A stretch of DNA of 64,000 bases from Parcubacteria group bacterium (GTDB taxonomy: Bacteria; Patescibacteriota; Minisyncoccia; JACPHC01). A model generated the notes under the pieces. The model saw nothing but the letters and a program-made list of their open reading frames with translations, was not told the DNA's origin and did not search any database. A program made the translations under genes and the position numbers. Shown here one piece after another: positions 6,712-63,312 of the stretch (position 1 is its first letter; the number at the start of each line of letters is the position of its first letter). The DNA is taken from contig JACPHC010000004.1 of the NCBI GenBank assembly GCA_016188775.1, forward strand, positions 12,704 through 76,703, read 5' to 3'.

Positions 6712-6807
6712 ATTTTCTAAATTTAGATTTAAAATTTAAGAATCAATCGACCTCATTCTTAAATCATAAATCTTTTTAATTAATAATTATTTTTTCGACT
6801 TTTTTTA

Positions 6808-6841
6808 CCCGCCAAAATTTTTTTATAAAAATTTTGGCGGG
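6808..6841. promoter_or_regulatory. palindromic hairpin/operator-like site CCCGCCAAAATTTTT-TTAT-AAAAATTTTGGCGGG
   Basis: Perfect 15-bp arms. A near-identical site is at 15882-15913 and a half-site at 16021-16034. Confidence 0.4.
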
Positions 6842-8665: not shown

Positions 8666-8676
8666 TGTGGATAACT
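8666..8676. promoter_or_regulatory. TGTGGATAACT 11-mer (contains a perfect DnaA-box complement TGTGGATAA)
   Basis: Exact 11-mer also at 15711-15721 and 15868-15878. Confidence 0.4.
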
Positions 8677-8740
8677 AAATTGAGCTAATTTTAGCGTTAT
8701 TTACTAATTTCTATCTATAATTTCTATCTATTTAAAGAAT

Positions 8741-8784
8741 AAACTTACATATTTACGGACGATCGTCCGTAAATATGTAAGTTT
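8741..8784. promoter_or_regulatory. perfect 44-bp palindrome centred on CGATCG (AAACTTACATATTTACGGACGATCGTCCGTAAATATGTAAGTTT)
   Basis: Reverse-complement identity checked by eye. Shares the core TTACGGACGATCGTCCGTAA with 40198-40243. Confidence 0.7.
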
Positions 8785-8794
8785 AATAAATTTT

Positions 8795-9355
8795 TTATTG
8801 AAGATGAAATCTATTTTTTAAATCCAAATCGATGTCTGTTTCTTTAACAATTAAAAATCTTGCATAAGCTCTCAAATTAAAAAATTCAATCACGAAATCA
8901 ATTTCATTTTTGCATTCATAAGGATAAATAAAAACGCTTTTTTGCAAAGGATAAAAACCTAATTGTTTTAATTGAAAAGTTAAAGCATTTCTTTCGCGTC
9001 TTAAACGTTCGGGAATATCAAAAATTACCACTCTCCATAATTTATCCCAATGGGGTGGTTTTTTAATTCGCATTGTTTTTAAATTATATCGCAAAAATTC
9101 TTTTTTGCCTTCTCTGTTTAAAACTAAACTAACTGTTCCGTCTTTATTTTCTTGATAATTAATTAATTTTGACCGATAAAGACGATGAATAGATTCTCTC
9201 AGACTACGATAATTAATTTTCTGCCATTCTTTGATAGCGGATTTTAAAATTCGAAAATAAGAATCTGGTCTGCGCGTTAAAGATAAAGCAACTCCCGTGC
9301 CTAACAAAATAATAATTTTTCTAGCCACCGGTCCCAATCTTTTTTTATTTGACAT
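8795..9355 (-). CDS. winged-helix plus Cas2-fold domain protein (PaaX-like putative regulator)
   Basis: The C-terminal segment VVIFDIPERLRRERNALTFQLKQLGFYPLQKSVFIYP resembles the Cas2/PaaX-C core. There is no cas1 and no repeat array nearby. Confidence 0.5.
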   Translation of the reverse strand: MSNKKRLGPVARKIIILLGTGVALSLTRRPDSYFRILKSAIKEWQKINYRSLRESIHRLYRSKLINYQENKDGTVSLVLNREGKKEFLRYNLKTMRIKKPPHWDKLWRVVIFDIPERLRRERNALTFQLKQLGFYPLQKSVFIYPYECKNEIDFVIEFFNLRAYARFLIVKETDIDLDLKNRFHLQ

Positions 9356-9407: not shown

Positions 9408-9521
9408 TATTTCAATGATATTTCAATATTTTTAAAATTTTTAAATTTACATGTTTATTTACGATCGTCCGTAAATATGTAAATTTTAAAAATAATATTG
9501 AATATTGAAATGGAATGGAAA
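9408..9521. repeat. long imperfect inverted repeat (~55-bp arms) centred on ACGATCGTCCGTAAATATGTAAATTT
   Basis: Left arm tttcaatgatatttcaatattttt...acgatcg pairs with right arm cgatcg...aataatattgaatattgaaatgg. Confidence 0.6.
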
Positions 9522-14679: not shown

Positions 14680-14758
14680 TGTCATTGCGAGGCGATGAAA
14701 TCGCCGAAGCAATCTCTCTCTTGGATTTTGAGATTGCTTCGTTTCGCTCGCAATGACA
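14680..14758. repeat. MITE-like foldback repeat, copy 2 (inverted relative to copy 1)
   Basis: TGTCATTGCGAGGCGATGAAATCGCCGAAGCAATCTC...GAGATTGCTTCG...CTCGCAATGACA. Confidence 0.8.
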
Positions 14759-14845: not shown

Positions 14846-15547
14846 TTAATAGCCATTACTCGTCACAATTAATAATTCAGTGCCTTTTTCAAAAATCAAA
14901 TCATTATTTCCGCCGTCATTCTTTTCTTTATCATCCGCGCCACCGTTGGAAAAAGCCGAGCTTTCAAGATTGGCTCCCAATTCAAATGTTGTATCAACAG
15001 CGTCGCAAACATAAGAGTAAAAATGATTATTAGTCGGACCTTCGCCAAGACTATTGATAACAGGAGCAGGATCGCGCGGAAGATTTGAAATTGGCGAACC
15101 GCCTGTAATGTCGCTAAACCTTACTGGCAACCAGCCCGTACCATCAACTACGCTGCTTGCGGAGCCGCTAGTCGCCCAAGCCGTAGTTTCATAAGTTTTC
15201 CCGCCTCCGGTTTGCGCTCCTGTTCCGTAAGATCTAGTGCCGGCGGCGATTCCTGTTTGATCGTAAAAAACAGTTGGATCTGGCGTAGCAGCAGACGAAT
15301 TAACACATCGATTATTATCAATAGTGTCAGTGGAAAGATCCGGCGCGCTAACCGTTGTCAAATAAAGACCTAAAGCGGTCTTTAAAACATCAAGGTCGGA
15401 AATTCTCTGAACGTCCCGGGCTTTTTTCAATGTTTCCGCCGGGTTCAAAACCAAAACCACCACCACGGACAAAATCGCCAAAATAGCGATAACGATCAAA
15501 AGTTCAAGCAGAGTAAAACCTTTTTTGCTAAACATTTTATTAGTCAT
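14846..15547 (-). CDS. type IV pilin-like protein (prepilin-type N-terminus)
   Basis: MTNKMFSKKG|FTLLELLIVIAILAILSVVVV. Confidence 0.75.
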   Translation of the reverse strand: MTNKMFSKKGFTLLELLIVIAILAILSVVVVLVLNPAETLKKARDVQRISDLDVLKTALGLYLTTVSAPDLSTDTIDNNRCVNSSAATPDPTVFYDQTGIAAGTRSYGTGAQTGGGKTYETTAWATSGSASSVVDGTGWLPVRFSDITGGSPISNLPRDPAPVINSLGEGPTNNHFYSYVCDAVDTTFELGANLESSAFSNGGADDKEKNDGGNNDLIFEKGTELLIVTSNGY

Positions 15548-15710: not shown

Positions 15711-15721
15711 TGTGGATAACT
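15711..15721. promoter_or_regulatory. TGTGGATAACT 11-mer (DnaA-box-like)
   Basis: Exact copy of the 8666-8676 and 15868-15878 11-mers. Confidence 0.4.
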
Positions 15722-15746
15722 TATGAAATATATTTTCTAGTTTAAT

Positions 15747-15768
15747 AAGTATCCTAAAAATTTTTAGG
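15747..15768 (-). promoter_or_regulatory. pilus-associated promoter-like motif (rc CCTAAAAATTTTTAGGATACTT) oriented toward the pilin gene 14846-15547
   Basis: Contains the 16-bp palindrome CCTAAAAATTTTTAGG plus a -10-like GATACT. Confidence 0.4.
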
Positions 15769-15810
15769 TACCCTCGGCGGATTATATAATTTCATTAAAG
15801 TGCCTCGACC

Positions 15811-15832
15811 TCAAAAATTTTTTAGAATACTT
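15811..15832 (+). promoter_or_regulatory. pilus-associated promoter-like motif (TCAAAAATTTTTTAGAATACTT) oriented toward 16038
   Basis: Same motif family, with -10-like TAGAAT. Confidence 0.4.
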
Positions 15833-15867
15833 ATTTAGCATTATACCACAAATTATAATCGTCAAGC

Positions 15868-15878
15868 TGTGGATAACT
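15868..15878. promoter_or_regulatory. TGTGGATAACT 11-mer (DnaA-box-like)
   Basis: Exact copy. Followed by the CCCGCC...GGCGGG hairpin at 15882-15913. Confidence 0.4.
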
Positions 15879-15881
15879 TTG

Positions 15882-15913
15882 CCCGCCAAAATTTTAGTTA
15901 AAATTTAGGCGGG
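15882..15913. promoter_or_regulatory. palindromic hairpin/operator-like site CCCGCCAAAATTTT-AGTT-AAAATTTAGGCGGG
   Basis: One mismatch versus 6808-6841. The half-site AAAATTTAGGCGGG repeats at 16021-16034, abutting the ATG. Confidence 0.4.
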
Positions 15914-16037
15914 TAAAAAAATAATAAATCGCATACCGGTTGCGCAAATAATCTTAAACGCGTATAATACCGCATAATCAAGAAGTGATTCCTTCTTATT
16001 TAAACAGTCGAAAAATAATTAAAATTTAGGCGGGTAA

Positions 16038-18314
16038 ATGTTTCAAAAACTCAATTTGAAAATCATTCTTTGGTCGCTCGTGGTTATTGTTTTTTTGCCG
16101 CTTCTGCTTTCGCCTTTTTTATTTTCCCCGCCGGAATTCGGTCGGGGCGTTATTTTCCGGATTATTATAGAATTGATTTTTATTATCTGGATAACGCTCG
16201 TTCTTTCCGACCAAAAATATCAGCCAAACCCTTCTTTTATTTTTTCTTCTTCTATTTTTAGGTCTTTGGCGATTTATATATCCATTACCGGCTTTTCGGT
16301 CATTTTCGGCATCCATCCTTTTTTCAGTCTTTGGTCCGAACCGGGACGGCTCGGCGGCTATTTCAGCCTCATTCATTATTTCCTTCTTTTTATTATAGCC
16401 GGTTCCGTTATAAAAGAAAAAGATTGGGAAAAAATTTGGACCGGAACGGCCGTGGCCGGAATTTTAGTCGGCCTTTTCGCGATTGAACAACGTTTTGATT
16501 TTTTTAAAAATTTTTTAACCGCCTTTGCCCGGCCGCCCGGACCATTGGGCAATCCCTTGATTTTAAGCGCCTGGTCGCTTCTTTTATTTTTCCTTTTTTT
16601 GGGATTTGTTTTAACTCAAAAATCTCTTTTCAAAAAAACGCTTTTCGCCTCCGCCGCCTCTTTCCAATTTTTTTCCATTTTACTCGCCCAGTCAAGAAGC
16701 GCCTATCTCGGCCTTGTCGCCGGACTCGGAATTTTTCTTTTATTTTACCCCGCCGGGAATAAAAAAATAAAAAAATGGCTGATGGCTTCCAGCCTCGTCA
16801 TAATTGCTATTTTTGCTCTGGGCGTTCTGCTTATTCCGAGCCTTACGAAAAATCCGGAAATCGCCAGAATTTTTACTTTTCTTCCTTCTTCCAAAAATGT
16901 TCAGGCCGCCAGCCTCGTTCCGCGCCTTTTAGTTTGGCAAGCCGGCCTCAAAGGATTTCTGGACAAACCGATTTTGGGCTGGGGGCCGGAAAATTTTTCC
17001 ATCGCTTTTGATAAGCATTTTAACCCCGGACTAGCCAGCTTCGGATACGTGGAAACTTATTTCGACCGAGCCCATAACACTCTTATCGACACGGCGGTTT
17101 CTTCCGGCATTTTAGGCCTGGCCGGTTATTTGGCTTTTTTCGTTATTGTATTTCGACAAATTCATAAAAAATACCGAGCCCAAAACATCAACGGCGAAAA
17201 TAAAATACTGCTAGCCGCTGTTGGCGCGACCTTGGCCGGCTATTTTATCCAAAACATTTTCAATTTCGACAGCGTTTCCACTTATATCTTTTTCTTTTTA
17301 ATTTTAGCTTGGCTGGAATTCCTTCTTAATTCTAAAATTCAAAATCCAACGCCCGAAACAGAAAATTCAGCGGTTAAAACGGCTAATTCCCGAATGCCGC
17401 TTCCGTTGCCATTATCGGCCGGAATTTTGATATTATCGGCCTTACTGGTTTTTTACTCAATTTTTAAATTTAACGTCAATCCTCTGCTGAAAAATTGGGA
17501 AATTAACCGGACGACTAATTTTTTAAAAAAAGGGTCATACCAGCTCGCTCTGGATAATTTTGAAAGACTGACCGGACAAGCTACTATGTTTGACCATTTT
17601 TACCACGCCTTAAACGAAGGCGGCGCGCTTTATGATATGGCCATGGCCATAAAAAATACCAATAAAGAAGAGGCGATAAAATTTCTAAAAAAGGCCGAGA
17701 AAAGAGTCCAAGATTATAATTATCAGCGGCCTTTTTACGTCCGAAATTATATCTTTTTAGGCTCCATAAATAACGCTCTTTACGAATTGGGCGAGACTGG
17801 AGCCGAGGACAGGGCCAAAAAATTTTTAGAGAAAGCCGTTGAAATCTCGCCAAAAAGACACCAGGCTTGGCTGGAATTGGCTAACATCTATTTAATTTCC
17901 AACGAGCAACAAAAAGTTCTTGCCATTGCCGATAAACTTATCAATTTTAATCCGGATATTGGAGAAGCTTATTTTATCAAAGCGCTGAGCTATGTCAGAA
18001 CAGGCAATATAGATGAAGCGGAATCGCAGCTGGAAATCGCCCAATCAAAAAAACTTGATTATTTCGGCTATCCTTACTTGGGAAGACTGGCGGAAACGGC
18101 GCTGACCATGAATAATAACGATTTCCTCGAAAAAATATATTTGGAATATAGCGATCAATATCCAAAAAATATTCAACCTCATCAACTTTTAGCCGCTCTT
18201 TACCGAAACACCAAACAAATCGTCAAAGCCAAAAAAGAAGCTCAAATTATTTTAGAACTTGAGCCGCGAGCTTCTAAACAAGTCGGAGATTTTCTAAATT
18301 CGCTGGAAAAATAA
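16038..18314 (+). CDS. O-antigen ligase-like (Wzy_C) polytopic membrane protein with C-terminal TPR repeats
   Basis: Many TM helices. The motif FDRAHNTLIDTAVSSGILGLAGYLAFF is typical of O-antigen ligase. The C-terminal half has TPR-like repeats. Confidence 0.7.
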   Translation: MFQKLNLKIILWSLVVIVFLPLLLSPFLFSPPEFGRGVIFRIIIELIFIIWITLVLSDQKYQPNPSFIFSSSIFRSLAIYISITGFSVIFGIHPFFSLWSEPGRLGGYFSLIHYFLLFIIAGSVIKEKDWEKIWTGTAVAGILVGLFAIEQRFDFFKNFLTAFARPPGPLGNPLILSAWSLLLFFLFLGFVLTQKSLFKKTLFASAASFQFFSILLAQSRSAYLGLVAGLGIFLLFYPAGNKKIKKWLMASSLVIIAIFALGVLLIPSLTKNPEIARIFTFLPSSKNVQAASLVPRLLVWQAGLKGFLDKPILGWGPENFSIAFDKHFNPGLASFGYVETYFDRAHNTLIDTAVSSGILGLAGYLAFFVIVFRQIHKKYRAQNINGENKILLAAVGATLAGYFIQNIFNFDSVSTYIFFFLILAWLEFLLNSKIQNPTPETENSAVKTANSRMPLPLPLSAGILILSALLVFYSIFKFNVNPLLKNWEINRTTNFLKKGSYQLALDNFERLTGQATMFDHFYHALNEGGALYDMAMAIKNTNKEEAIKFLKKAEKRVQDYNYQRPFYVRNYIFLGSINNALYELGETGAEDRAKKFLEKAVEISPKRHQAWLELANIYLISNEQQKVLAIADKLINFNPDIGEAYFIKALSYVRTGNIDEAESQLEIAQSKKLDYFGYPYLGRLAETALTMNNNDFLEKIYLEYSDQYPKNIQPHQLLAALYRNTKQIVKAKKEAQIILELEPRASKQVGDFLNSLEK

Positions 18315-18348
18315 GTTTTTTGGAAAAATAAAAAAAATATAAAATTTG

Positions 18349-18369
18349 CTAAAAAATTTTAGGATACTT
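18349..18369 (+). promoter_or_regulatory. promoter-like motif CTAAAAAATTTTAGGATACTT
   Basis: Same family as above, but between convergent genes. Its role is unclear. Confidence 0.3.
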
Positions 18370-18381
18370 TTAGATGAACAT

Positions 18382-20394
18382 CTACGGCGAATAATTGATA
18401 GTAACGTCATATAATTCCGGAGTTTTTGAACTATCGGTCGTGGAAAAGAAAAACTTGTATCTTAAATAACGATTGTTGTTATGGCAAGCCCGATTAATTT
18501 TAGCATACGAAGCCGACGCGCTGATAGTATAATAAGTTCCGGCGGAGCAATCCGGCCCTTTGTAATTCCAAGTGGCGTTATCGTTATTAGTGGCGATTTG
18601 AGCCTTTAGGTCCGTGCTGGCCACTTGCGAAGACGGATTCCAAGCCAAAGTGTTAAAAGCTGAAGAAGCGACGGTATCAAGCGAAGTGGAAGTAAAATCG
18701 CCCGAGGCAACAAATCCGCCGCTTGAGCTGGCAAAAAGAATATCGTCAAAAAACAAAGTCGGCCGGGCCGTGGTCGCGTTTTCAATCATTGAAATGGACG
18801 TAATTGTAGCGCTGGCAATATTCATATCCGCCAAAGGAATGGAAACCAATTGCCAACTGGTCGGATCTTTATCCGGGCCGCCGGTCAAATATGAAGACAT
18901 ATTTACTTCGGTCGGACTTCCGCCCACTGGCTTTACTTTAAAATCCTGACCGTAATAATTGGGCGTGAAATAACTGGGCGGAGTGGGATTATCCAAAGCG
19001 GTCGCGTAATTATAATTGACATTGGCGTTTCGAAAATTCGTGTCAAAGGTTTTAACAATAACCGAACCATTGACGGTCAAAACTTGCGGACTAGAAATGG
19101 AAGAATCATTAATTCCTCCGGTTTCTGAAAAAATAAATCCGCTAATCGTAAAATTATTGTTGGCGCTAAATTGAATCGCGCCGGCGCCAAGCAAAGCCGG
19201 ATAAATGTTTTTATTTTTGCTGTTTAAAGTAGTGCTGTTGTAATTTTGCAATCTAACGTCCGTGGTATTGGTGACGATTGAGGCCGTATAGCTTCGGCCG
19301 GAAAAACTGCCGAAATCTATCGTTAATCTTCTAGCGGTATCGCTGAATTCCACGTAAACCAATTTATTGGCGTAACCGGCCAGGTCAGATTCGCTGATCG
19401 TGTAATTGGACGAGCCGGCATTGACGTAAATTCCACTGGATTGAGCTTCGGATTTAAACGAGGCGTAATTGGGCGTGGGAAAAATAGTGGTATAAGAATT
19501 ATAAGTATAAGAAGCGTAGCCGGAAAAACTATTGGTTAAAGTAATACCTGAACCGGTCGGGGCGCCGCCGGTGTTGGAATAAAAAGCAAAAGTCCAAGGC
19601 GCGACTGAATCAATATAAAAATCAAAAGAATTGAAACCCGCGGTGTTAAAACTTTTGGAAAATTTTATTTCCCCGGAGGCGGCAAATTTTGTCAGCAAAG
19701 ATTTGGCGCCGGTTCGGATCGGCTTATTGGTATTATTAAGATCAGTCGTGTTGCCGCCGATGTTGGAAAAAGTCCAACCGGTTCCCAAAGCGTCGGTATA
19801 GATATTTTCCGGACTGCCTCCGCCCGAAGTCGCCAGTCTTACTTCCCCGCCGGAATTATTGGTCGTCACAACGTTATTTTTTGTTCCGGCGTCAAATTCG
19901 GCTTGAGTGGTATGAATAAATTTATTGTTGTTCAAATATCGGGTTGAATAAATCGTATAACTGACTGATCTTGAAATAGGTTGGGACCAAGAAACCGTCA
20001 CGACCATTTTTTTGCTTGAAGGATCAGAGACGCCGCAAGCGACCAAAGCATCGGACGAATCCCGACAAACATCGGAAATAACTATTTTCCGGGTAAAATT
20101 TCCCACAGTTTCGCCAACCGGATCAGCGGTCAGAATCCATTTGCCGTTTGAATTAGCCGAAATTTTATAAGCGCCATTGGCTAAATTCTGCCAAGAATCT
20201 TCCCGAATCGACCGAGCCGCTTCCAAGTATTCCTGGGCCAAAAAATTGGCCTCGGCAATGGCTTCGCTTTGAATGAAACTGGAATAAGTCGAGACCACAA
20301 AATCCGTCAAGGCCGGCAAAAAAATCGCCAGCAGTCCCATAACGACGACAATTTCAATCATCGCTTGACCTTTTTTATTGTTTATTAATATCAT
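18382..20394 (-). CDS. large (670 aa) prepilin-type protein, candidate pilus tip/minor pilin or adhesin
   Basis: N-terminus MILINNKKG|QAMIEIVVVMGLLAIFLPAL has the prepilin pattern. The large Ser/Thr/Asn-rich C-terminal domain is likely beta-rich. Confidence 0.6.
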   Translation of the reverse strand: MILINNKKGQAMIEIVVVMGLLAIFLPALTDFVVSTYSSFIQSEAIAEANFLAQEYLEAARSIREDSWQNLANGAYKISANSNGKWILTADPVGETVGNFTRKIVISDVCRDSSDALVACGVSDPSSKKMVVTVSWSQPISRSVSYTIYSTRYLNNNKFIHTTQAEFDAGTKNNVVTTNNSGGEVRLATSGGGSPENIYTDALGTGWTFSNIGGNTTDLNNTNKPIRTGAKSLLTKFAASGEIKFSKSFNTAGFNSFDFYIDSVAPWTFAFYSNTGGAPTGSGITLTNSFSGYASYTYNSYTTIFPTPNYASFKSEAQSSGIYVNAGSSNYTISESDLAGYANKLVYVEFSDTARRLTIDFGSFSGRSYTASIVTNTTDVRLQNYNSTTLNSKNKNIYPALLGAGAIQFSANNNFTISGFIFSETGGINDSSISSPQVLTVNGSVIVKTFDTNFRNANVNYNYATALDNPTPPSYFTPNYYGQDFKVKPVGGSPTEVNMSSYLTGGPDKDPTSWQLVSIPLADMNIASATITSISMIENATTARPTLFFDDILFASSSGGFVASGDFTSTSLDTVASSAFNTLAWNPSSQVASTDLKAQIATNNDNATWNYKGPDCSAGTYYTISASASYAKINRACHNNNRYLRYKFFFSTTDSSKTPELYDVTINYSP

Positions 20395-20417
20395 ATTTTC
20401 CTAATTTAAAAGGTGTT

Positions 20418-20438
20418 CTAAAAATTTTTAGGATACTT
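20418..20438 (-). promoter_or_regulatory. promoter-like motif CTAAAAATTTTTAGGATACTT, ~25 bp upstream of the 18382-20394 gene
   Basis: Exact match to the motif family. Confidence 0.35.
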
Positions 20439-20440
20439 TT

Positions 20441-20490
20441 TTTATTTATTTCCAATATACTGGTATACCAGTATATTGGAAATAAATAAA
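20441..20490. repeat. perfect 50-bp palindrome (TTTATTTATTTCCAATATACTGGTA | TACCAGTATATTGGAAATAAATAAA) directly after the pilin gene stop
   Basis: Perfect reverse-complement symmetry read directly. Candidate long hairpin terminator or attenuator. Confidence 0.7.
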
Positions 20491-20491
20491 A

Positions 20492-20959
20492 TTATTGAAC
20501 TTCAATAACCCCGGATTTATAAATTGTCATTGTTTTGGAAAGTCCGGTTTGAGTGTTTTGGATAATCAAAGTATTTTGGCCCGAAGAGAAAGATTCGACT
20601 TCTCCGATTAATTTAGTGAAAATAATTTGCGACGATGGAAAGGTTACGCTGGAAAACGTATAACCCGAAGAAAGAGTGGAAACAAAATTAGTTCCCGCGC
20701 CGGCCGAATACGGCGCCTGAAATAGAGTGAAAGAAGTCGAGTCAAAAAAAACGCCGAATTTGGCGGCTGTGGAACCGGATTCGGCAAAGCCGGTCATTGA
20801 TTTGACCCGGGCTTCAAAAAACGTGTTTTTAATTTGAGCGACCGCGGCCGAAAGTTCCGTGTCAATAATGGGTTTGACCGCGTTTAAACTTATCAAGGCG
20901 GCCAAAATCGCGAAAATCGCGACGCTGATGGAAATTTCAATGAGAGTAAAGCCCCGCAT
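20492..20959 (-). CDS. type IV pilin-like protein
   Basis: MRG|FTLIEISISVAIFAILAALISL. Confidence 0.7.
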   Translation of the reverse strand: MRGFTLIEISISVAIFAILAALISLNAVKPIIDTELSAAVAQIKNTFFEARVKSMTGFAESGSTAAKFGVFFDSTSFTLFQAPYSAGAGTNFVSTLSSGYTFSSVTFPSSQIIFTKLIGEVESFSSGQNTLIIQNTQTGLSKTMTIYKSGVIEVQ

Positions 20960-20960
20960 T

Positions 20961-22019
20961 TTATCTGGCTCCGATTCGGCCGATTAATTGATAAATCGGA
21001 GCGATAATCGTAATCACTATCAAAGCCACTAAAGTTCCGACGACAACAATCAAAAGAGGCTCAATCAAAGTTGATAAAGTCTTCAAAATGTTGGCGGCTT
21101 TTCTTTCATAAAAAACGGCTAAATCAATCAGCACTTGATCCAGATTGCCGGATTTCCAGCCCACGGCCACGGCTGAACGGTACATTTGAGGAAAAAGATC
21201 GGGCCAAGCGCCTAAAGCCATGTCCAAAGAAACGCCCTTGGAAACATCGTCTTTAATAACCGGCATAGCGGACCGATAAACCGGGTCTTCAAAAACATTG
21301 GCGGCCAGCTCCAGCGACTCCAGTATCGGAATGCCGGAGGCAAAAAGCAAACTCAAGGTTCGGGCGTATTTGGCCAGATTAACGGCTTGAACCAATTTGT
21401 TGATTCCGGGCAGGCGTTTAAAAAAAGAAAATATAACGAGACGAACCGGTTTTAAAACCCGCCAGACAAAAACAAAAACGAGAACAATAAAAATTAAAAA
21501 TAAAATGGAACTTAAAATATTCCGGCTCAAAATCGCCGAGATGGAAAATAAAATCTGGGTGTAGACAGGAACTTTTAATTGAAGTTTGGCGAAAACGGAC
21601 GCCACCCGAGGAATGACAAAAAGAAAAATGAAAAATAAAATAACGATGGCCAGTCCCAAAACTAAAAGAGGGTAAAAGGCCGCGGCTTGAAGATTTTTTT
21701 TGATATTGTAGGAATTTTCCAGCTCTTCTGCCAAAAAACTGATGTTGCGATCCAAGGTGCCGCTTTGCTCGCCGGCTCGAATCGCGGCCGTGAAAACTTT
21801 GTCAAAATACCGAGGGTGATCTTCAAAACTTTCAGTCAAGCTTTTGCCGCTGGAAATGGAAACGAGCATCGCCTGAAAAACTTTTTTAGCTTCCCGGCTT
21901 TCCGCTTCCACTGATAAAATTTCAAAAATCTCGATTAAATTAAGTCCGGATTTCAAAAGCAGATGAAAATTCTTTAAAAAATTTATCCGCTCAAGTAGTG
22001 AAAATTTTTTAGTAAACAT
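20961..22019 (-). CDS. pilC: second GspF/PilC-family platform protein
   Basis: 352 aa with a TM pattern and GspF-like repeats (LSTLIEPLLIVVVGTLVALIVITIIAPIYQL). Confidence 0.85.
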   Translation of the reverse strand: MFTKKFSLLERINFLKNFHLLLKSGLNLIEIFEILSVEAESREAKKVFQAMLVSISSGKSLTESFEDHPRYFDKVFTAAIRAGEQSGTLDRNISFLAEELENSYNIKKNLQAAAFYPLLVLGLAIVILFFIFLFVIPRVASVFAKLQLKVPVYTQILFSISAILSRNILSSILFLIFIVLVFVFVWRVLKPVRLVIFSFFKRLPGINKLVQAVNLAKYARTLSLLFASGIPILESLELAANVFEDPVYRSAMPVIKDDVSKGVSLDMALGAWPDLFPQMYRSAVAVGWKSGNLDQVLIDLAVFYERKAANILKTLSTLIEPLLIVVVGTLVALIVITIIAPIYQLIGRIGAR

Positions 22020-22057
22020 TTTTCTCTATAATAAAACAAAATAGAAATTTCAGCAGT

Positions 22058-22142
22058 TGTCATTGCGAGCGACCGAAGGGAGCGCGGCAATCTCAAGCAT
22101 TTAACAAATGATTGCTTCGTCGCTTACGCTCTTCGCAATGAC
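22058..22142. repeat. MITE-like foldback repeat, copy 3 (degenerate), followed by extra direct repeats to ~22230
   Basis: TGTCATTGCGAGCGACCGAAGGGAGCGCGGCAATCTC...GATTGCTTCG...CTTCGCAATGAC. Then ACGGACGCGAATGTT appears twice and CGAAGTTCAACTTCG is palindromic. Confidence 0.7.
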
Positions 22143-22245
22143 GGACGCGAATGTTCAATTTTACGAAGTTCAACTTCGCAAGGTTTCGCTTCGTAAGGTT
22201 TCACGGACGCGAATGTTGAAATTTTTATTTCATTATCTTTTAAAT

Positions 22246-23910
22246 TTATAAAACTCTTAAAACTTCTTCAATCGTTGTCAGGCCCGCGTCCACTTTTTCA
22301 AGGCCGTCCTCAAAAAGCGTCGTCATTCCTTCTTTTTTCGCTTGCGTCAAAATTTTTTGATCCGCCTCTCCTCTGAAAATCATTTGCCGGATAGCGTCGC
22401 TGAATTTCAAAACTTCAAAAATACCGATGCGGCCCTGAAAACCCGAACCGCCGCATTGAGGGCAACCCGTGCCGTGAAAAAACTGCCGGCCTCCAAGACT
22501 GACGCCGAATTCTTTTTCCGCCGCCTCTAAAACCAAAGGCGACGGCTGGTAAGAGCCGATGCAAACCAAACACGGCCTCCGAACCAAACGTTGGGCAATG
22601 GCCGCGTTCAAAGTTGAACTCAAAAGAAAGGGCCGAATTTTCAAATCCAGCAGTCTTGTTAAAGACCCAATAGCGTCTTGAGTGTGCAAAGTGGATAGAA
22701 CCAACTGGCCGGTCAGGGCGGCGTGAATGACAATTTCAGCCGTTTCTTCATCCCTGATTTCTCCGACCATAACTATATTGGGGTCGTGGCGCAAAATCGA
22801 GCGCAGACCAACGGCAAAATCAATGCCGGTTTTAGGATTAACCTGAATCTGATTGAGACGGGGAATGGTGTATTCAATCGGGTCCTCAATAGTCTCAATG
22901 CTGACTCGGGGATTATTCAAAACATTAATCATATTATAAAGAGTCGTTGTCTTGCCGGAGCCGGTTGGGCCGACCACTAAAATCAAACCGAATGATTTTT
23001 TGAGTTCTTCTTGAACAATCTCCAGTTGTCGGCCGGAAAGTCCGGTTTCTTCCAAATTCTTCGGCCGGCCTAATTCCGAAAGCACTCTCGTTTCAATGCT
23101 CTCCCCTTCTTCGGTCGGCAAAATGGAAACCCTGACGGAAACTTTTTCTTTTTGAAAAGAAAAAGTGAAACGGCCGTCTTGAGGCTGATAATGTTCGTCT
23201 ATTTTCAAATTGGCCAAAATTTTAATTCGGGCCAACAAAGGGTCGTAAATTTTGGGCGGCAGTTTCAAAACGTCAAAAAGCGCGCCTTCAATTCTTAACC
23301 GGACGATAATCTCTCCCAAAAATTTATCAATATGGATATCGGAGGCGCCTTTGGCGGCGGCGTAGGTTAAAATCAAATCCAGGATTTTCACCACCGGCGC
23401 TTCTTTGGCCCCTTGTTCCCCGGTTGCCTTGACCGCGGCGATTGATTTTTCAATCAGGGACGGAAGCTGTTTTTCAAAATTTTGAAAATAAAGCCCGAGA
23501 GCGTAATTAAAAGAACCTCGGGTCATAAAATAAGAAGTAACTTCGCTTCTGGTTTTTTTTCTGACCAATTCAATCGCTTCCAAATCTTTCGGATTTTCCA
23601 TTGCCAGAAAAACTTTTTTATCTTCTTTTTTAAAAACAATAATATGATATTCTTCGGCGATTTCTTGCGGGACTAAATTTAGGATTTCCAGGGGTATTTG
23701 AGTTCTTTTTAAATCAATATAAGGAACTTTAAAATACCAGCCGGCCACTTCGCCGAAATATTTTTCCGCGATTATTCCTTTTTCAATTAAAACATCCAAA
23801 AGATTTTTTCCCAGCGTGCCCGCGGTTTCTTCGGCCAAACGCATTTCTTCTTCCGGAACGATTCCTTGGCCGATAAGAATTTGTTTTATGTCATCATTTG
23901 AAAGAATCAT
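22246..23910 (-). CDS. pilB: second GspE/PilB-family pilus assembly ATPase
   Basis: Walker A GPTGSGKTT, MVGEIRD box, tetra-Cys CLVC...CPQC. Confidence 0.92.
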   Translation of the reverse strand: MILSNDDIKQILIGQGIVPEEEMRLAEETAGTLGKNLLDVLIEKGIIAEKYFGEVAGWYFKVPYIDLKRTQIPLEILNLVPQEIAEEYHIIVFKKEDKKVFLAMENPKDLEAIELVRKKTRSEVTSYFMTRGSFNYALGLYFQNFEKQLPSLIEKSIAAVKATGEQGAKEAPVVKILDLILTYAAAKGASDIHIDKFLGEIIVRLRIEGALFDVLKLPPKIYDPLLARIKILANLKIDEHYQPQDGRFTFSFQKEKVSVRVSILPTEEGESIETRVLSELGRPKNLEETGLSGRQLEIVQEELKKSFGLILVVGPTGSGKTTTLYNMINVLNNPRVSIETIEDPIEYTIPRLNQIQVNPKTGIDFAVGLRSILRHDPNIVMVGEIRDEETAEIVIHAALTGQLVLSTLHTQDAIGSLTRLLDLKIRPFLLSSTLNAAIAQRLVRRPCLVCIGSYQPSPLVLEAAEKEFGVSLGGRQFFHGTGCPQCGGSGFQGRIGIFEVLKFSDAIRQMIFRGEADQKILTQAKKEGMTTLFEDGLEKVDAGLTTIEEVLRVL

Positions 23911-23949
23911 TTGACGCTAAAATTAGATTTTTGGTATACTTATTTAAGT

Positions 23950-23977
23950 AAGTATCTTAAAAATTTTTAGAATACTT
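23950..23977. promoter_or_regulatory. bidirectional promoter-like palindrome AAGTATCTTAAAAATTTTTAGAATACTT between divergent pilB and pilin genes
   Basis: Motif family member in both orientations. A variant CTAAAATTAGATTTTTGGTATACTT lies at 23915-23940. Confidence 0.4.
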
Positions 23978-24022
23978 ACTTGTCGTTAATTTATAATAAA
24001 AAGCGAAGCTTTTGATTAAATT

Positions 24023-24463
24023 ATGAAAAATAAAGGTTTTACCTTGATCGAAGTTTTGGTCGTTGTCGGCATGCTCGCCATTTTAATGGCGATTGTGATC
24101 ATTGCCATTAACCCGCCCAGGCAATTTTCTTTGGCCAACAATACCAAGCGCCGTTCCGATATTCTGGCTATCCTAAACGCGGTCCATCAATACGCGGCTG
24201 ACAATAAAGGAACTTTGCCGTCAGTCATTACCACCACTTCCACGGATATGGGAACCGGCTCCGGCGAAATCAATATCTGCACGTATTTAGTTCCCAATTA
24301 TTTGGCCGAGATGCCCTTTGACCCAAAAGCCTCCGGCGCTAATTATTCCAGTTGCACCAGCTACGAAACGAAATATCAAATCAAAAAAGATTCCACCACC
24401 AGCCGAATAACCGTTGCCGCTTCCTCGGCCGAACTGAGCGAAACGATTTCAATCACCAGATAA
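24023..24463 (+). CDS. type IV major pilin-like protein (PilA-like)
   Basis: MKNKG|FTLIEVLVVVGMLAILMAIVIIAI is a canonical prepilin N-terminus. 146 aa. Confidence 0.8.
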   Translation: MKNKGFTLIEVLVVVGMLAILMAIVIIAINPPRQFSLANNTKRRSDILAILNAVHQYAADNKGTLPSVITTTSTDMGTGSGEINICTYLVPNYLAEMPFDPKASGANYSSCTSYETKYQIKKDSTTSRITVAASSAELSETISITR

Positions 24464-26446: not shown

Positions 26447-26478
26447 TAAAAAAAACTCCTTAAATGGAGTTTTTTTAA
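26447..26478. terminator. bidirectional intrinsic terminator (A-run, AACTCC-TTAAAT-GGAGTT, T-run) between convergent genes
   Basis: Stem-loop flanked by A-runs and T-runs, read directly. Confidence 0.5.
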
Positions 26479-26483
26479 AATTT

Positions 26484-28316
26484 TTAAGATTGGCGATTTA
26501 TGATTTCGTTTATTTCATCTTTTTCTAAAGTTTCTTTCTCAATCAGTTTTTCGGCCAGACTCGCCAAAATTATCGATTTTCTTTTTAAAATTTCTTTCGC
26601 GTTTTTATAGCAAGCGTCAATCAGAATTTTCACTTCTTGATCGATCATTCTCGCGGTTTCTTCGGAATAATCTTTCGTTTGAGCGATGTCTCTCCCCAAA
26701 AAAACTTCGCTTTTGCCCTGTTCATAAAAAATCGTCCCTAAATTTTCGCTCATTCCCCATTCCGCTATCATTTTTCTCGCCAGTTCGAAGGCTTTTTTAA
26801 AATCGTCTCTCGCGCCATTGGTAATTCCAAGCCCCAGCATCTTTTCGGCGATTCGGCCGCCGAGAAAAATAGAAATCTCCGCTTTAAGATAATCTTCAAA
26901 ATAAAGATGCCTGTCGTCTTCCGGCAAAGAATGAGTGGCGCCAAGCGAGTACCCGCGAGGAATAATGGTAACTTTATTTATTTCATCGGCGTTGGGCAAA
27001 GATTTCGCGACTAAAGTATGCCCGGCTTCGTGCCAAGCGACCACTTTCTTTTCCTTTTCATTCATAATAATGTTTTGGCTGATACCCATTAAAAGGCGAT
27101 CGATGGCGGCTTCAAAATCCGACTCTTCAACTTTTAATTTATTCATTCTCGCGGCAATTAAAACCGCTTCGTTAGCCAGATTGGCAAGATCGGCGCCAAC
27201 TAAGCCTGGAGTCATTTTAGCTATTTTAGCAAGATTGACATTAGCCGATAAAATAATTGATTTTGTGTGAATTTTTAAAATTTCTTCCCGTTCTTTTATA
27301 TTCGGCCTCGGGATAACAATATGTCTGTCAAAACGGCCGGGCCTTGTCAGGGCCGAGTCTAAAATATCCGGCCTGTTTGTCGCCGCGAAAACTATTATTG
27401 TCTCATGGGAGTCAAATCCGTCCATTTCAATAAGAATCTGATTCAGCGCTTGTTCCCTTTCATCATGCCCGCCTCCAATACCGGCGCCCCGATGCCGGCC
27501 AATCGCGTCAAGCTCGTCTATAAAAACAACGCAGGGGGTTTTTTTCTTCGCCTTTTCGAATAAATCCCGAACTCGCGCCGCTCCAACGCCCACATACATT
27601 TCCACGAACGCGGAACCCGATTCGGAAAAAAACGGAACACCCGCTTCTCCGGCAACGGCTTTGGCAAGAAGAGTTTTTCCCGTTCCCGGAGGCCCGATAA
27701 AAAGAAGCCCTCGGGGAATTTTCGCGCCAAGTTTTCTGAATTTTTCCGGCTCTTTTAAAAATTCAATAACTTCTTTTACTTCTTCTTTGGCTTTTTCACA
27801 GCCGGCAACATCTTCAAAAGTTATTTTATTTTTTTCAACGGCGGAAATTTCTTTCGCCCTCGCTTTTGTAAAACCGATTTGATTATTTAATCCGCTTTTG
27901 GTTTGTCTTATGAAAAAAATCACGTAAATAGCCGTAACGCCCAAAAGAAAAAGAACAAGCAGGTTTAAAAAAGAAAAAGAGGACGGGGGTATAATTTTCA
28001 ATCCAACCCCGTGATCTTTTAATTTATTCAGAAAATCCATATCGCCGGCCAAAGAAGAAAAAACATCAATCGCGTATAATCTTTGATCTTTCGACATCCA
28101 TTTTAATCTGCCGTCACTTAGCCGCAATTCCGCGTAAGAAACTTGATTCGATTCCACCAATTTAAGAAATGAGGTTATTGTTTGATAAGATGTTTTGTCT
28201 AAATATCCGTTTGTCGCGCCGTTTTCTTTAATTGAAACCGTGTTATTGATAAAAAACACGGCCAAAGAAGCGATAAGAACGCCTATTATTATAAACATTA
28301 TGTTTCGCGGAAACAT
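26484..28316 (-). CDS. ftsH: ATP-dependent zinc metalloprotease FtsH
   Basis: AAA Walker [24 protein letters not shown], zinc motif HEAGHTLV, N-terminal TM. Confidence 0.93.
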
Positions 28317-34069: not shown

Positions 34070-35525
34070 CGCAGTCCGCAGAAGACGAGCGAAGGCGGGG
34101 GAATAAAATCAACGGAAGATGACGACCGACAAGTAATGTCTATTGAAGCGCAACTTTTTGAACTGCGAGAATACGCGCGTAAAGAAAATCTTGAAATTCT
34201 GGAGGAATTTCAAGAGTCGAAAAGCGCAAAGACACCCGGACGAGAAATCTTCGGCGAGATGATGGCGAAAATAGAAAGTGATGGAGATTTTGGCATACTC
34301 GCGTGGCACCCCGATCGCCTTGCGCGTAATAGTATTGACGGAGGACGCATTATCTACACCGTAGATCAGAAGAAAATAGTGTCTTTGCGTTTTCCGACAT
34401 TTTGGTTTGAACCAACCCCGCAGGGGCTCTTTATGTTGCAAGTGGCGTTCGGATGCGTCGTAAAGAATGGCTGGGACTTGCGCCTTTCGGATACCAAAAC
34501 AATCCACTTATTCGTAATATTGAACCGCACCCGACCGAAGCGCGTATTGTTAAATTAGCGTTTGAGGAATATGCGAAAGGCGTACACTCTTTTGTTTCTC
34601 TCGCGCAATTTTTGGCGGACCTCGGCGTTGTCTCAAAAAATAGAATGCCACTTGCCAAAGCTTCCATCAAACGACTTTTAACGAACAGAGCATATCTCGG
34701 CTTTTTGAAACACAAAGGAGAATGGTTTGATGGAAACTTTGAACCAATTCTTTCTCCCGCATTGTTTGAAGCCGTGCAGAAAATTTTGAAAACGAAAGAG
34801 CGGCCGCGCCACCGCCGCGCTCGGCACGATTTCCCATTTACCGGATTATTCCGGTGTGCCGAGTGCGGCTCAATGATTAGCGCGCAATGGGCGGTCAATC
34901 GCTGGGGTACAAAATATCGCTACTATCGCTGTTCAAAAAAGCGCGGCCGCTGTCCGCAACCATATATTCAAGAGGCGGAGTTGGCGCGGCAAATCAAGGC
35001 ACGGCTTCAAACAATCTCGCTTTGCGACAATCTCACCGATTGGATGTTGGAAAAAGTAAAAAGTTGGGAGCACGAGGAAATCGGAGCGTCGCAAAGCGAG
35101 GTTCAAAATCTTTCCGAAAATATTAAAACGGCAGAAGCGAGGATGGAAAAGCTGGTTTCCACTTATCTTGATGGCGACATTCCCAAACAAACTTATCTCA
35201 AAAAGAAAGATGAAATTTTACTCGCTTCTGCCGTTTTGGAGCAAAGGAAAAAAGATTTTGAAAACGGGAGAAAAAATTGGGTCGAACCCCTGCGGGAATG
35301 GATTTTAGATACGAAACAGGCCGATTTTTTGAGCACATCGAATGATTTTCACCAAATCAAAACATTTGTTCAAAAAATCGGAACGAACCCTCGGGTTCGT
35401 AACAAATCCGCCGTCTTTGATTTTTGCCCAGCCAGCCAGTTCGCCGCGAAGCGGCGAGGGATTTTGCGGAGCGCGGCCGCCTCGCGGCCGCGCGGAGCAA
35501 CCCTTTCAAATCGTGAAGTTTCTAT
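34070..35525 (+). pseudogene. large serine recombinase: frameshifted, without an in-frame start codon, and with a degenerate catalytic motif
   Basis: Resolvase-domain remnant (IKSTEDDDRQVMSIEAQ...DRLARN) with no start codon upstream. Frame shift near 34440-34460. Recombinase plus zinc-ribbon domain (FRCAECGSMIS...YYRCSKKRGRCPQP) in the second frame. The track ORF runs on through the tRNA only because no stop codon intervenes. Confidence 0.7.
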
Positions 35526-35615
35526 TGGCGGAGGCGGTGAGATTCGAACTCACGATGCCCTTTCGGACATACTTGCTTTCCAAGCAAGCGCACTAGGCCG
35601 CTATGCGACGCCTCC
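35526..35615 (-). tRNA. tRNA-Ser (anticodon GGA), class II with long variable arm, CCA encoded
   Basis: rc sequence GGAGGCG-TC-GCATAGCGGCCTAGTGCG-CTTGC-TTGGAAA-GCAAG-TATGTCCGAAAGGGCATC-GTGAG-TTCGAAT-CTCAC-CGCCTCC-G-CCA folds as a cloverleaf. Confidence 0.85.
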
Positions 35616-35715
35616 AATAGATTGGATTATATAGTTTAAAATCGGGAAAATCAAACGATATCAGTATTACATATTGATATTTTTTTTGTTATAATAAATA
35701 TAATCAATAAAAAAC

Positions 35716-38010: not shown

Positions 38011-38099
38011 ATTCAATCATTTGTCATTGCGAGAAGCGAAGCGACGAAGCAATCTCTATAATCAGCCAAGAAATGAGATTGCTTCGGCGATTCCATCGC
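38011..38099. repeat. MITE-like foldback repeat, copy 4
   Basis: TGTCATTGCGAGAAGCGAAGCGACGAAGCAATCTC...GAGATTGCTTCGGCGATTCCATCGCCTCGCAATGAC. Confidence 0.8.
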
Positions 38100-38157
38100 C
38101 TCGCAATGACGATTGTTTCGCAATATTTCAAAAATCCGTTTCCGAAGCTTTAACTAT

Positions 38158-40200: not shown

Positions 40201-40243
40201 ATTTACACCTTTACGGACGATCGTCCGTAAAGGTGTAAATTTA
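40198..40243. promoter_or_regulatory. perfect 46-bp palindrome centred on CGATCG (TAAATTTACACCTTTACGGACGATCGTCCGTAAAGGTGTAAATTTA) between convergent genes
   Basis: Shares the 20-bp core TTACGGACGATCGTCCGTAA with 8741-8784. Overlaps the kinase stop codon. Confidence 0.7.
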
Positions 40244-40355
40244 GAAATCTTCTATTTTCATAGACTCCAACACTCTTATCCGTTCCTCAATCGGCGGATG
40301 GGTCACCCCGTACAAATGCTTCGCGTTATACGGAGCGAAACTCAAATAAATTAAT

Positions 40356-47087: not shown

Positions 47088-47197
47088 ATAACTATTATAA
47101 ATGATATAAAATTAAAATTAAAGTTTATGTTCAAAAAAATAATTCTTTAATATAGGCATATGTAATGAGTTTTTCTAAGATAAAATTTTTAAAAAAA

Positions 47198-47239
47198 TTC
47201 ACTACAATAGTATTACGATCGTAAGTTCATTGTAGTGAA
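47198..47239. promoter_or_regulatory. CGATCG-centred imperfect palindrome, family 2 (TTCACTACAAT-N6-ACGATCGT-N6-ATTGTAGTGAA)
   Basis: 11-bp arms and the ACGATCGT core match. The 6-nt internal segments are non-complementary. Confidence 0.6.
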
Positions 47240-47343
47240 AATGTCTGTTTTCAGTCGAAGGCGCGAGATAATCTTCACGAGGCGATTTCCTCTTGCAAAA
47301 GCTATTGCATAATAAAATTATTCGTGCTATATTGGATAATCGT

Positions 47344-48287: not shown

Positions 48288-48379
48288 CGTCATTGCGAGA
48301 AATGAAGCGAAGTGTAATAACGAAGCAATCCCAAAGATTGCCGCGTCGCTCTCATTTTCATTCGCTCCTCGCAATGACA
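48288..48379. repeat. MITE-like foldback repeat, copy 5 (degenerate), inside the rpsF-ssb-rpsR cluster
   Basis: CGTCATTGCGAG...GAAGCAATCCC...GATTGCCGCG...CTCGCAATGACA. Confidence 0.7.
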
Positions 48380-48691: not shown

Positions 48692-48747
48692 CAAAATTTT
48701 ACTACAATCAATAATACGATCGTGAGCTTCATTGTAGTAAAATTTTG
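48692..48747. promoter_or_regulatory. CGATCG-centred imperfect palindrome, family 2 (CAAAATTTTACTACAAT-N7-ACGATCGT-N7-ATTGTAGTAAAATTTTG)
   Basis: 17-bp arms match perfectly. Lies between convergent rpsR and recA. Confidence 0.65.
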
Positions 48748-52282: not shown

Positions 52283-52398
52283 AAAAAACTATTTTCAGTT
52301 TAAAACAAAAAAGACTTCTTGTGAAGCCTTTCTTGTTTTTTAATTCTCAAATTTATCACGTTAGACAAAATCTTATTATTTCACCATTTCACGTATTT

Positions 52399-52446
52399 AT
52401 TTTCACTACAATGCATTCACGATCGTGAGTTGATTGTAGTGAAAAT
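52399..52446. promoter_or_regulatory. CGATCG-centred imperfect palindrome, family 2 (ATTTTCACTACAAT-N6-ACGATCGT-N6-ATTGTAGTGAAAAT)
   Basis: 14-bp arms match. Lies between the ftsK start and the rpoC stop. Confidence 0.65.
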
Positions 52447-52460
52447 TTAAAAACTCAAAC

Positions 52461-63159: not shown

Positions 63160-63217
63160 AATTTTATTATATTATATCAATTAATAAAAAATAACAAAAC
63201 TATTTATATTTTCTTTT

Positions 63218-63259: not shown

Positions 63260-63312
63260 TTAAAATTTTATAATCTTTCTAATGATTGTTAAAAAATGTT
63301 AAATTAATTTTA

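Follow-up and report, generated by a model that had tools for sequence, protein, structure and literature searches.

The second type IV pilus locus and its recurring palindrome

The window, a 64-kb stretch of Parcubacteria DNA, carries two type IV pilus loci, the second of which comprises three pilin-type genes, an O-antigen-ligase-like gene, a gene for a 670-aa pseudopilin-like protein and PilB/PilC. Domain assignments for the genes between the sites described below are N_methyl (pilins), T2SSE (PilB), T2SSF (PilC) and Wzy_C (the ligase); for the 670-aa protein, no database record was found. The 21-mer CTAAAAATTTTTAGRATACTT is matched seven times in the window with at most three mismatches, always within 15747–23977, compared to a chance expectation of 0.04 matches from 100 shuffles, none of which reached seven. 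The claim of the sequence-only reading that a near-identical motif recurs in this interval is thereby borne out. The true unit is the 28-bp palindrome AAGTATC-CTAAAAATTTTTAG-GATACTT with its 14-bp AT core, complete at 20411–20438 and 23950–23977 and present as a single arm at 15747, 15812 and 18349; the earlier description, an AT palindrome joined to a –10-like hexamer, was right about the palindrome and too short in its extent, which reaches 36 bp at 23946–81. No further matches to the 21-mer (up to three mismatches) or the 28-mer (up to eight) occur in the 64 kb, and we take five weak additional matches to the 14-mer arm (up to two mismatches; 6695, 31072, 41237, 52574 and 60067) as chance. 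Copies are 90–100% identical to one another over 21–28 bp; their boundaries are sharp and their flanks unrelated. The C-to-AG length is constant at 14 bp despite a shifting A/T boundary (A5T6 or A6T4), suggesting a spacing constraint. Site 15747 was recovered in Logan assemblies of other runs (L211 and L212), as was site 23950–77 (L118).

The individual copies differ in completeness and in the genes that they face. Copy A1 (15747–15774, minus strand) has a perfect arm at 15747–67 directed towards the pilin gene at 14846–15547 and a degenerate opposite arm, TTTTTAGGTACCCT, while copy A2 (CAAAAATTTTTTAGAATACTT; 15812–15832, plus strand, two mismatches) is directed towards the Wzy_C/TPR O-antigen-ligase-like gene at 16038–18314. 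A1 and A2 serve as outer arms in an imperfect palindrome of ~100 bp, whose centre is ATTATATAAT (15781–90). Copy B (18349–18369, plus strand, one mismatch) is one-armed and sits between convergent genes, 12 nt beyond the stop codon of the 670-aa gene, so that its 'orphan' arm points towards that gene's 3′ end. Copy C (20411–20438) is a full palindrome upstream of the 670-aa gene (18382–20394). Its perfect arm, 20418–38, had been assigned to the minus strand but lies on the plus strand, pointing at the 3′ end of the pilB2-pilC2-pilin operon; the gene-facing minus arm is the degenerate one (20411–31, two mismatches), 17 bp upstream of the ATG. Copy D (23946–23981, both arms) has its 28-bp core at 23950–77, with one mismatch in each arm (23950–70, minus; 23957–77, plus), and lies between the divergent genes pilB2 (22246–23910, minus) and pilin 24023–24463 (plus). 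A variant copy on the plus strand (23911–23941, with TTTTTGGTATACTT at 23928–41) is also directed towards the pilin gene at 24023.

Counting the variant with the seven arms gives eight arm-like copies, six of which face gene starts, and the extended arm ATACTTAYTT is common to the five best gene-facing copies, variant included. The sequence-only reading had all but one copy correctly oriented, 20–200 bp upstream of pilin or pilus genes; the orientation holds for most arms and fails for two (18349 and 20418, both plus), and the measured motif-to-start-codon distances are 17, 40, 46, 200 and 206 bp.

The motif is restricted to a single locus: its five sites in 64 kb are all intergenic and occupy four of the window's 29 intergenic gaps, all in the second pilus locus and within a single run of five gaps (P ~0.004 by combinatorial count). 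All copies fall within 8.2 kb, while two other palindrome families of the same window are spread over 47–55 kb. As had been claimed, the first pilus locus (8.8–13.2 kb) and the housekeeping genes of the window lack the motif. DNA uptake sequences (DUS/USS) occur in hundreds to thousands of genomic copies, about one per kb and also inside genes, and this identity was rejected on the number, intergenic placement and single-locus clustering of the sites.

Promoter geometry around the arms

A –10-like hexamer with at least five of six consensus matches begins 29–36 bp from the palindrome centre in six of seven arms, an enrichment that random intergenic anchors reproduced in 0 of 20,000 trials; when the best 8-bp window was allowed, the random-anchor fraction was 0.00025. 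Examples are TATATT at 15727–15732 (minus), 29 bp outward of the A1 centre, TATAAT at 23992–23997 (plus), 29 bp outward of the D centre, and TATAAT at 15854–15859 (plus), 36 bp outward of the A2 centre. The offset is thus 29 bp for the first and third pilin genes and 30 bp for the 670-aa gene, whose –10 box overlaps its ATG; the other arms give 32, 35, 36 and none, and pilB2 lacks a good –10 there. The exact value of 29 at both stand-alone pilin genes would place the palindrome centre at about –41, but the offsets spread over 7 bp, so that a single geometry accommodates only three arms. For the same reason the arm was rejected as a fixed –35 element. The –35 position of the motif arms reads AGRATA, a weak match (two to three of six), and among motif copies only the variant at 23911–40 carries a canonical pair, the sigma-70-like promoter TTGACG-18-TGgTATACT, from which transcription would start at about 23947, just before palindrome D. 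Taken together, this arrangement supports arms that are probably promoter-associated.

The motif is not the organism's generic sigma-70 promoter, in agreement with the sequence-only reading: no copies lie outside 15.7–24.0 kb in the window, and other intergenic regions carry classical TTGACA/TATAAT-type signals, as in FtsH (TTGACA-17-GATAAT) and several TATAAT boxes.

Searches for a regulator, relatives and precedents

The earlier suggestion of a dedicated sigma factor or regulator found no counterpart among the genes: none for a DNA-binding regulator or sigma factor was found in or near the block within the 64-kb window, and the response regulator adjoining it consists of a receiver domain only. 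In the closest relative, the orthologous pilin-kinase locus (L206) retains the gene order and a pilin that is 87% identical, and has a canonical promoter (TTGACC-17-TAAAAT) and no motif. The motif is likewise absent from loci L202–L205 and L207–L209. The relatives of PilB2 are at most 53% identical, and their loci lack it too, those with a 51–52% identical PilB among them. The first 170 aa of PilB2, used to look for fragments from close relatives, gave no matches, and searches with window-edge proteins returned short Logan contigs only. The cognate protein and orthologue-conserved sites that mark a transcription-factor regulon were thus not found in the window and at L202–L209.

Scans with shorter queries yielded chance matches. 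A genome-contig scan with AAAAWWTTTTAGRATACTT, too degenerate a query, gave at least 117 single chance matches across all phyla; at least one of the four that were opened (L102) falls in coding sequence, at IRQKFLEYF of a 901-aa ORF that we take to be alanyl-tRNA synthetase. A metagenome-contig scan with YTAAAAATTTTTARRATACTT gave 79 loci, all single or low-GC chance matches, the two adjoining pilin genes (L191 and L135) being an AT-rich run that abuts a TTGACA box. The viral contigs scanned gave 0 matches. Motif strings retrieved only unrelated plastid and insect sequences from the literature, and a literature search on Patescibacteria pili and promoters yielded no described motif controlling such loci. 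By-eye comparison with consensus sequences led us to reject matches to sigma-54, sigma-28, sigma-H/ComX, ComK-box, CodY-box, dif and parS.

Several known systems resemble the motif in part. Class II activator sites of the CRP/FNR type centre near –41.5. The motif is likewise palindromic over a poor –35, with its centre ~41 bp upstream of the start predicted from the TATAAT-like –10 at the two stand-alone pilins, and one site in a divergent gap could likewise serve both genes; however, it is a 28-bp AT-only palindrome unrelated in sequence to TGTGA-N6-TCACA or TTGAT-N4-ATCAA, the other arms would centre at about –44 to –48, and no CRP/FNR-family gene was seen. Like CIRCE/HrcA-type operators, the copies are near-identical long inverted repeats at several linked-gene promoters and overlap promoter elements. 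CIRCE is conserved across phyla. The motif, in contrast, is not conserved in relatives, shows no sequence similarity to CIRCE and has no cognate repressor gene, and two of its copies lie off promoters. With Correia and REP elements it shares the form of short, near-identical intergenic inverted repeats with outward –10-like hexamers near their ends, but it is known from five sites in one 8-kb locus, has no target duplication and, at a minimal 28 bp, lacks an internal segment. Dedicated motifs upstream of pilus or pseudopilus genes are also exemplified by the ComK box (AAAA-N5-TTTT), CRP-S/Sxy, the streptococcal cin-box TACGAATA and sigma-54 pilA promoters; these competence and pilus boxes set pilus genes apart from housekeeping promoters, as does the motif, although it contains none of their consensus features (GG-N10-GC, TGCGA/TCGCA, A4-N5-T4 spacing or TACGAATA).

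A proposed shared control site and its alternatives

The motif is most likely a shared control site of the second pilus cluster. Specifically, we propose, with a probability of roughly 45%, that it is a locus-specific operator overlapping core promoters and bound by a putative dimeric regulator. The 14-bp AT palindrome would be the predicted binding site, overlapping the –35/spacer region of promoters that fire outward, with the outward arm RATACTT(AYTT) occupying the place of the –35 or itself acting as a weak –10; a TATAAT-like –10 would then follow 29–36 bp from the centre. One regulator acting at four intergenic regions could jointly switch the pilins, the pilin-glycosylation-type ligase, the large pseudopilin-like gene and the pilB2-pilC2 operon, leaving the first pilus locus outside its reach, either by activation from about –41 or by occlusion and repression. 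Weighing against an operator are the two nearly perfect arms that point towards gene 3′ ends (18349 and 20418), the lack of a regulator gene in the block and the missing motif at L206. In addition, the 90–100% identity among copies exceeds what regulator sites need and looks like copying.

This last property also speaks for a reading that we consider doubtful though not negligible, namely that a small palindromic repeat (REP/MITE-like, compare Neisseria Correia) spread locally through the intergenic DNA of the block, with promoter activity as a by-product and no dedicated regulator. The high identity, the sharp boundaries and the unrelated flanks fit such an element. So do the occurrence of copies in gaps of every kind (divergent, tandem and convergent), the two arms that have nothing to drive, absence from the nearest relative's orthologous locus and the interval 15747–15832, which resembles a unit of 86 bp bounded by terminal inverted repeats, with a folding energy of –25 kcal/mol. 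The genome has at least two other intergenic palindrome families, and Logan contigs of two runs end at 15769 beside the core, which may mean that the assembly graph branches there. However, those clearly dispersed families contrast with the confinement of the motif, which is found in none of 24 other gaps; neither a target-site duplication nor a transposase or RAYT-type gene was found in the window; the one-armed copies 15747 and 15812 retain precisely the gene-facing arm; and outward –10 enrichment is not expected of inert repeats. The motif could also be a promoter that an alternative sigma factor reads directly, or one of a –35-independent class, which we regard as unlikely. TAGRATACT would then be an (extended) –10, the upstream T-tract would play the part that the –16 region has in AT-rich bacteria, and the conserved TAYTTAA would hold the transcription start. 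RATACT retains A(–11) and T(–7), in the variant a genuine TGnTATACT pairs with a TTGACG –35 spaced 18 bp away, conservation is directional in gene-facing arms, where it reaches ATACTTAYTT, no other –10 is evident between the palindrome and the ATG of pilB2, and the recurrent deviations from TATAAT, R at –12 and C at –8, point to another specificity. Yet the palindromic symmetry of the core is left unexplained by a sigma factor, for which no gene was found in the window; one-armed copies have no conserved upstream –35 partner, two arms would yield antisense RNA only, and the motif does not match the sigma-54, sigma-28 or sigma-H/ComX consensus.

A further reading is a self-contained bidirectional module, a palindromic operator with outward promoters that was copied to both the 5′ and 3′ ends of pilus units. 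We consider this improbable; if true, one regulator would co-fire sense and antisense transcription of these genes, or copies would recombine, with switch-like, phase-variable expression of the second pilus in a Parcubacteria episymbiont as the result. Quite improbable, too, is a role in recombination, site-specific or homologous, by which pilus modules would be inverted or shuffled, as in shufflons or invertible-promoter phase variation. Because every core is self-complementary, any two copies are inverted repeats, and the ligase gene at 16038–18314, the sole plus-strand gene in a 24-kb minus-strand run, is exactly bracketed by the copies at 15812 and 18349; the break at 15769, seen in the contigs of two samples, is also consistent with rearrangement. 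Against this, the independent contigs examined, which are short and end at or near repeats, show the same arrangement. The window's one recombinase, of the serine type and split, lies at 34.1–35.6 kb beside tRNA-Ser, away from the block, the core, being perfectly symmetric, offers no asymmetric spacer for crossover, and the sites are intergenic, whereas those of shufflons lie inside pilin coding sequence. We attach very little probability to the motif acting as RNA, that is, as terminators, attenuators or mRNA-stabilising stem-loops. The plus strand of 20405–20450 does form a hairpin of 15 bp (–12.9 kcal/mol, z –5) with U7 after it, and on this strand alone all three left-arm substitutions are compatible with G–U pairing; palindrome D reaches about –12 kcal/mol on either strand, and copy B sits between convergent genes. 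However, the stems are almost purely A–U, the one-armed copies do not fold (18335–85: –5.1 and –4.6 kcal/mol, z above –1.5), and the one hairpin that both folds well and has a U-run lacks an upstream gene on its strand; an intrinsic terminator was rejected. A terminator scan passed over the motif sites and called a GC-stem bidirectional terminator at 26449–76, and Rfam covariance models gave no match at the motif, their only match in the window being tRNA-Ser at 35.5 kb.

Candidate Phyla Radiation bacteria rely on type IV pili for host attachment, motility and DNA uptake. A study of cultivated Saccharibacteria reports that they deploy two distinct pili (PMC11623550). Marking one of two pilus loci, the motif offers a concrete handle on regulation, and the 28-mer could be used as bait for a regulator and as a marker of co-regulated genes in the full genome. 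The element is of an ordinary kind in an unstudied lineage, and its value is limited insofar as it appears restricted to a single uncultured genome.

Two other palindromes of the window were noted. CGATCG-centred palindromes (seven copies) were rejected as SOS-type operators, since a number of them are placed at 3′ ends or convergent junctions and resemble terminator or REP hairpins. A perfect 52-bp AT-rich palindrome occupies 20440–20491, between the stop codon of pilin 20492–20959 and copy C, and Logan contig L210 breaks within it.

A palindrome confined to the second pilus locus

Scanning the window with the 21-mer CTAAAAATTTTTAGRATACTT (up to 3 mismatches) returned seven matches, at 15747(−), 15812(+), 18349(+), 20411(−), 20418(+), 23950(−) and 23957(+), against 0.04 expected from dinucleotide shuffles. 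The true unit is the palindrome AAGTATC-CTAAAAATTTTTAG-GATACTT, complete at 23950-77 (2 mismatches, with a 36-bp extension at 23946-81) and 20411-38 (3 mismatches), and represented by a single intact arm, or outward-reading half, at each of 15747, 15812 and 18349; the C-to-AG distance is constant at 14 bp despite a shifting A/T boundary. The 14-bp arm, 12-bp core and complete 28-mer, used as further queries, turned up just one addition, the variant TTTTTGGTATACTT at 23928-41, setting aside a handful of other 1-2-mismatch matches to short AT-rich patterns (arm and core scans), which we take as chance. Because two of the sites recur in independent Logan assemblies of other sequencing runs, the motif is not an assembly artefact; it is a real feature with solid statistics. 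A weak gapped likeness, TTAAAATTTTTAAGAT, at the response regulator/FtsH convergent junction (26468-26490), immediately following a GC-stem bidirectional terminator (26449-76), is probably chance in AT-rich DNA.

The window comes from a Parcubacteria-group MAG, and its PilB matches an NCBI entry, located on a contig of 101.5 kb, at 100% identity. The motif-bearing block comprises a pilin gene (14846-15547, −), a Wzy_C/TPR O-antigen-ligase-like gene (16038-18314, +), a 670-aa pseudopilin-like gene (18382-20394, −), a pilin–PilC–PilB operon (20492-23910, −), and a further pilin gene (24023-24463, +), beyond which come genes for a histidine kinase and a receiver-only response regulator. The first pilus locus (8.8-13.2 kb; PilB, PilC, pilin and a PaaX_M-domain protein) carries no copy in the window scan, and the remaining window holds housekeeping genes (FtsH, GroES/EL, S6, SSB, RecA, FtsK, RpoB/C). 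With no 21-mer or 28-mer match in the window outside 15.7-24.0 kb, the absence from the first locus and the housekeeping genes asserted by the sequence-only reading is borne out. Of 29 intergenic gaps that are 40 bp or longer, four contain the motif, all inside one five-gap run; counted combinatorially, 101 of the 23751 possible four-gap subsets are equally compact (P ~0.004).

Arms, −10 hexamers and promoters

Six arms, the variant included, face a gene start, with 17 to 206 bp between motif end and start codon. All copies but one had been described as lying upstream in the correct orientation, which holds for these six and fails for two nearly perfect arms, 18349+ and 20418+, that point at the 3′ ends of minus-strand genes. 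Among the gene-facing arms, the best five have the extended conservation ATACTTAYTT in common; both orphan arms read ATACTTTT. When we measured outward from the centre of the palindrome to the start of a −10-like hexamer (at least 5/6 matches, with A2 and T6), we found TATATT and TATAAT, both at 29 bp, for the arms of the pilin genes at 14846-15547 and 24023-24463, TATGAT at 30 bp for the 670-aa gene (overlapping its ATG), TATACT at 32 bp for 20418+, AATAAT at 35 bp for 18349+ and TATAAT at 36 bp for the ligase; by the same count, the arm of the second-locus PilB gene has none. Six of seven arms with a −10 in the 29-36 bp window was reached in 0 of 20000 trials with random intergenic anchors, and allowing the anchors their best 8-bp window gave a fraction of 0.00025. 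The motif is promoter-associated, because such hexamers recur outward of the arms beyond random anchors.

The RATACT of the arm itself resembles a −10, and the variant copy forms a good promoter, TTGACG-18-TGgTATACT, whose inferred transcript would begin right at the palindrome at 23950-77. For both stand-alone pilin genes, the centre of the palindrome would lie ~41 bp before the inferred start and cover a poor −35; such a placement would fit a class II activator site and, just as well, a repressor that occludes the −35. As had been proposed, the motif is not this organism's generic promoter: classical signals precede genes elsewhere in the window (TTGACA-17-GATAAT for FtsH; TATAAT boxes for groES and others), and TTGCGC-17-TATAAT is present closer to the ligase gene. 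Separately, a recurring box type, (G)GTCGAAAAATAATTA, occurs at ~6793-6810 (−), 15560 (−), 16007 (+) and 551/878, upstream of a 1896-aa surface protein, the pilin at 14846-15547, the ligase gene and ORF 171-758, and paired hairpins CCCGCCAAAAT..ATTTTGGCGGGTAAAAAAA lie at 15883-15916 and upstream of the 1896-aa gene (~6.9 kb).

Relatives and competing explanations

An 87% identical ortholog (P0122) of the pilin at 24023-24463 keeps the same pilin-kinase order at locus L206 (kinase N-terminus 60% identical), and its 124 bp upstream contain a canonical TTGACC-17-TAAAAT and no motif. More distant pilin orthologs (65-67%), at the ends of pilus operons, and loci with PilB 51-52% identical are likewise without it, and exact-pattern scans of genome, metagenome and viral collections gave nothing beyond chance among the matches listed. 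As far as can be seen from these comparisons, the element appears specific to this genome. In relative GCA_964589815.1, the gap between a receiver-only response regulator and PilB contains at least seven tandem copies of the octamer AATAATCA (locus L204, 9875-9995). This lineage-specific repeat is distinct from the motif but occupies the corresponding place in a pilus locus.

We tentatively favour an operator that is specific to the second pilus locus and overlaps its core promoters (probability roughly 0.45): a putative dimeric regulator would bind the palindrome, and the five transcription units would be co-regulated independently of the first pilus locus. Tight clustering, extended gene-facing arms and −10 enrichment favour a regulatory role. 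A palindromic repeat that has spread locally, its outward promoters being incidental, is rather unlikely; speaking for it are the very close resemblance among the copies, the pair of orphan arms, the fact that no regulator gene lies nearby and the motif's absence from the nearest relative. Direct recognition by an alternative sigma factor, defining a promoter class, is a little more doubtful still, and use of the copies as recombination sites is improbable. RNA hairpins are the most improbable: the palindromes at 20411-38 (+ strand only) and 23950-77 fold as RNA at ~−12 to −13 kcal/mol, the one-armed copies do not fold, and the U-run after the former on the + strand has no upstream gene. Rfam returned no match in the motif-bearing block; that the palindromes serve generally as terminators or structured RNAs is unlikely. 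The feature is most likely a cis-regulatory element of an ordinary type, an operator/promoter palindrome, in an unstudied lineage.

Other repeats and local features

Two other palindrome families, spread over 47-55 kb of the window, exemplify repeats that are not locus-specific in this genome. CGATCG-centred palindromes (seven copies; centred on ACGA|TCGT, 40-50 bp) lie at 8738-8787, 9440-9489, 40196-40245, 47194-47243, 48695-48744, 52398-52447 and 63214-63263, in two subtypes, TTTACATATTTACGGACGA|TCGTCCGTAAATATGTAAA and TCACTACAAT..ACGA|TCGT..ATTGTAGTGA. They are scattered over intergenic gaps, with several copies at 3′ ends or at convergent junctions, and have the look of REP-like or bidirectional-terminator hairpins. 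They flank on both sides the gene at 8795-9355 (−), whose 186-aa product with a PaaX_M (Cas2-like) domain adjoins the first pilus locus; no other protein close to the pilus genes of the window is a candidate of regulator type. The CATTGCGAG hairpins (GTCATTGCGAGCGA...GAAGCAATCTC...CTCGCAATGAC; five intergenic copies) occur at 929-999, 14683-14755, 22061-22160, 38025-38108 and 48291-48376; one occupies the gap between the second-locus PilC and PilB genes, the sole motif-free gap of the block.

Three perfect DnaA boxes (TTATCCACA; 15711-15719, 15868-15876 and 8666-8674, all −) compare with ~0.5 expected by chance; two flank the pair of motif copies that lies in the 490 bp between the pilin and ligase genes. 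The window contains no dnaA gene, and around 14-16 kb the local GC skew switches sign with a terminus-like polarity. Logan contigs L211 and L212, from two runs, both end at 15769, 2 nt past the palindromic core of the copy at 15747, which may mark an assembly-graph branch (population heterogeneity or rearrangement) within the 44-bp segment that separates the two inverted copies. Another contig, L210, terminates within a perfect 52-bp AT-rich palindrome (20440-20491; 26-nt arms without spacer) that adjoins the motif copy at 20411-38, directly 3′ of the stop codon of the pilin at 20492-20959. Finally, at 34136-35634 (+) the coding sequence of a large serine recombinase is divided between two ORFs, one with the Resolvase domain (34136-34558) and one with the Recombinase/Zn-ribbon part (34453-35634); its 3′ end overlaps tRNA-Ser(GGA) (35526-35615, −). 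An apparent helix-turn-helix-type CDS, judged by eye from the DNA, is located just upstream (~33.6 kb), and the whole is probably a decayed integrative element.
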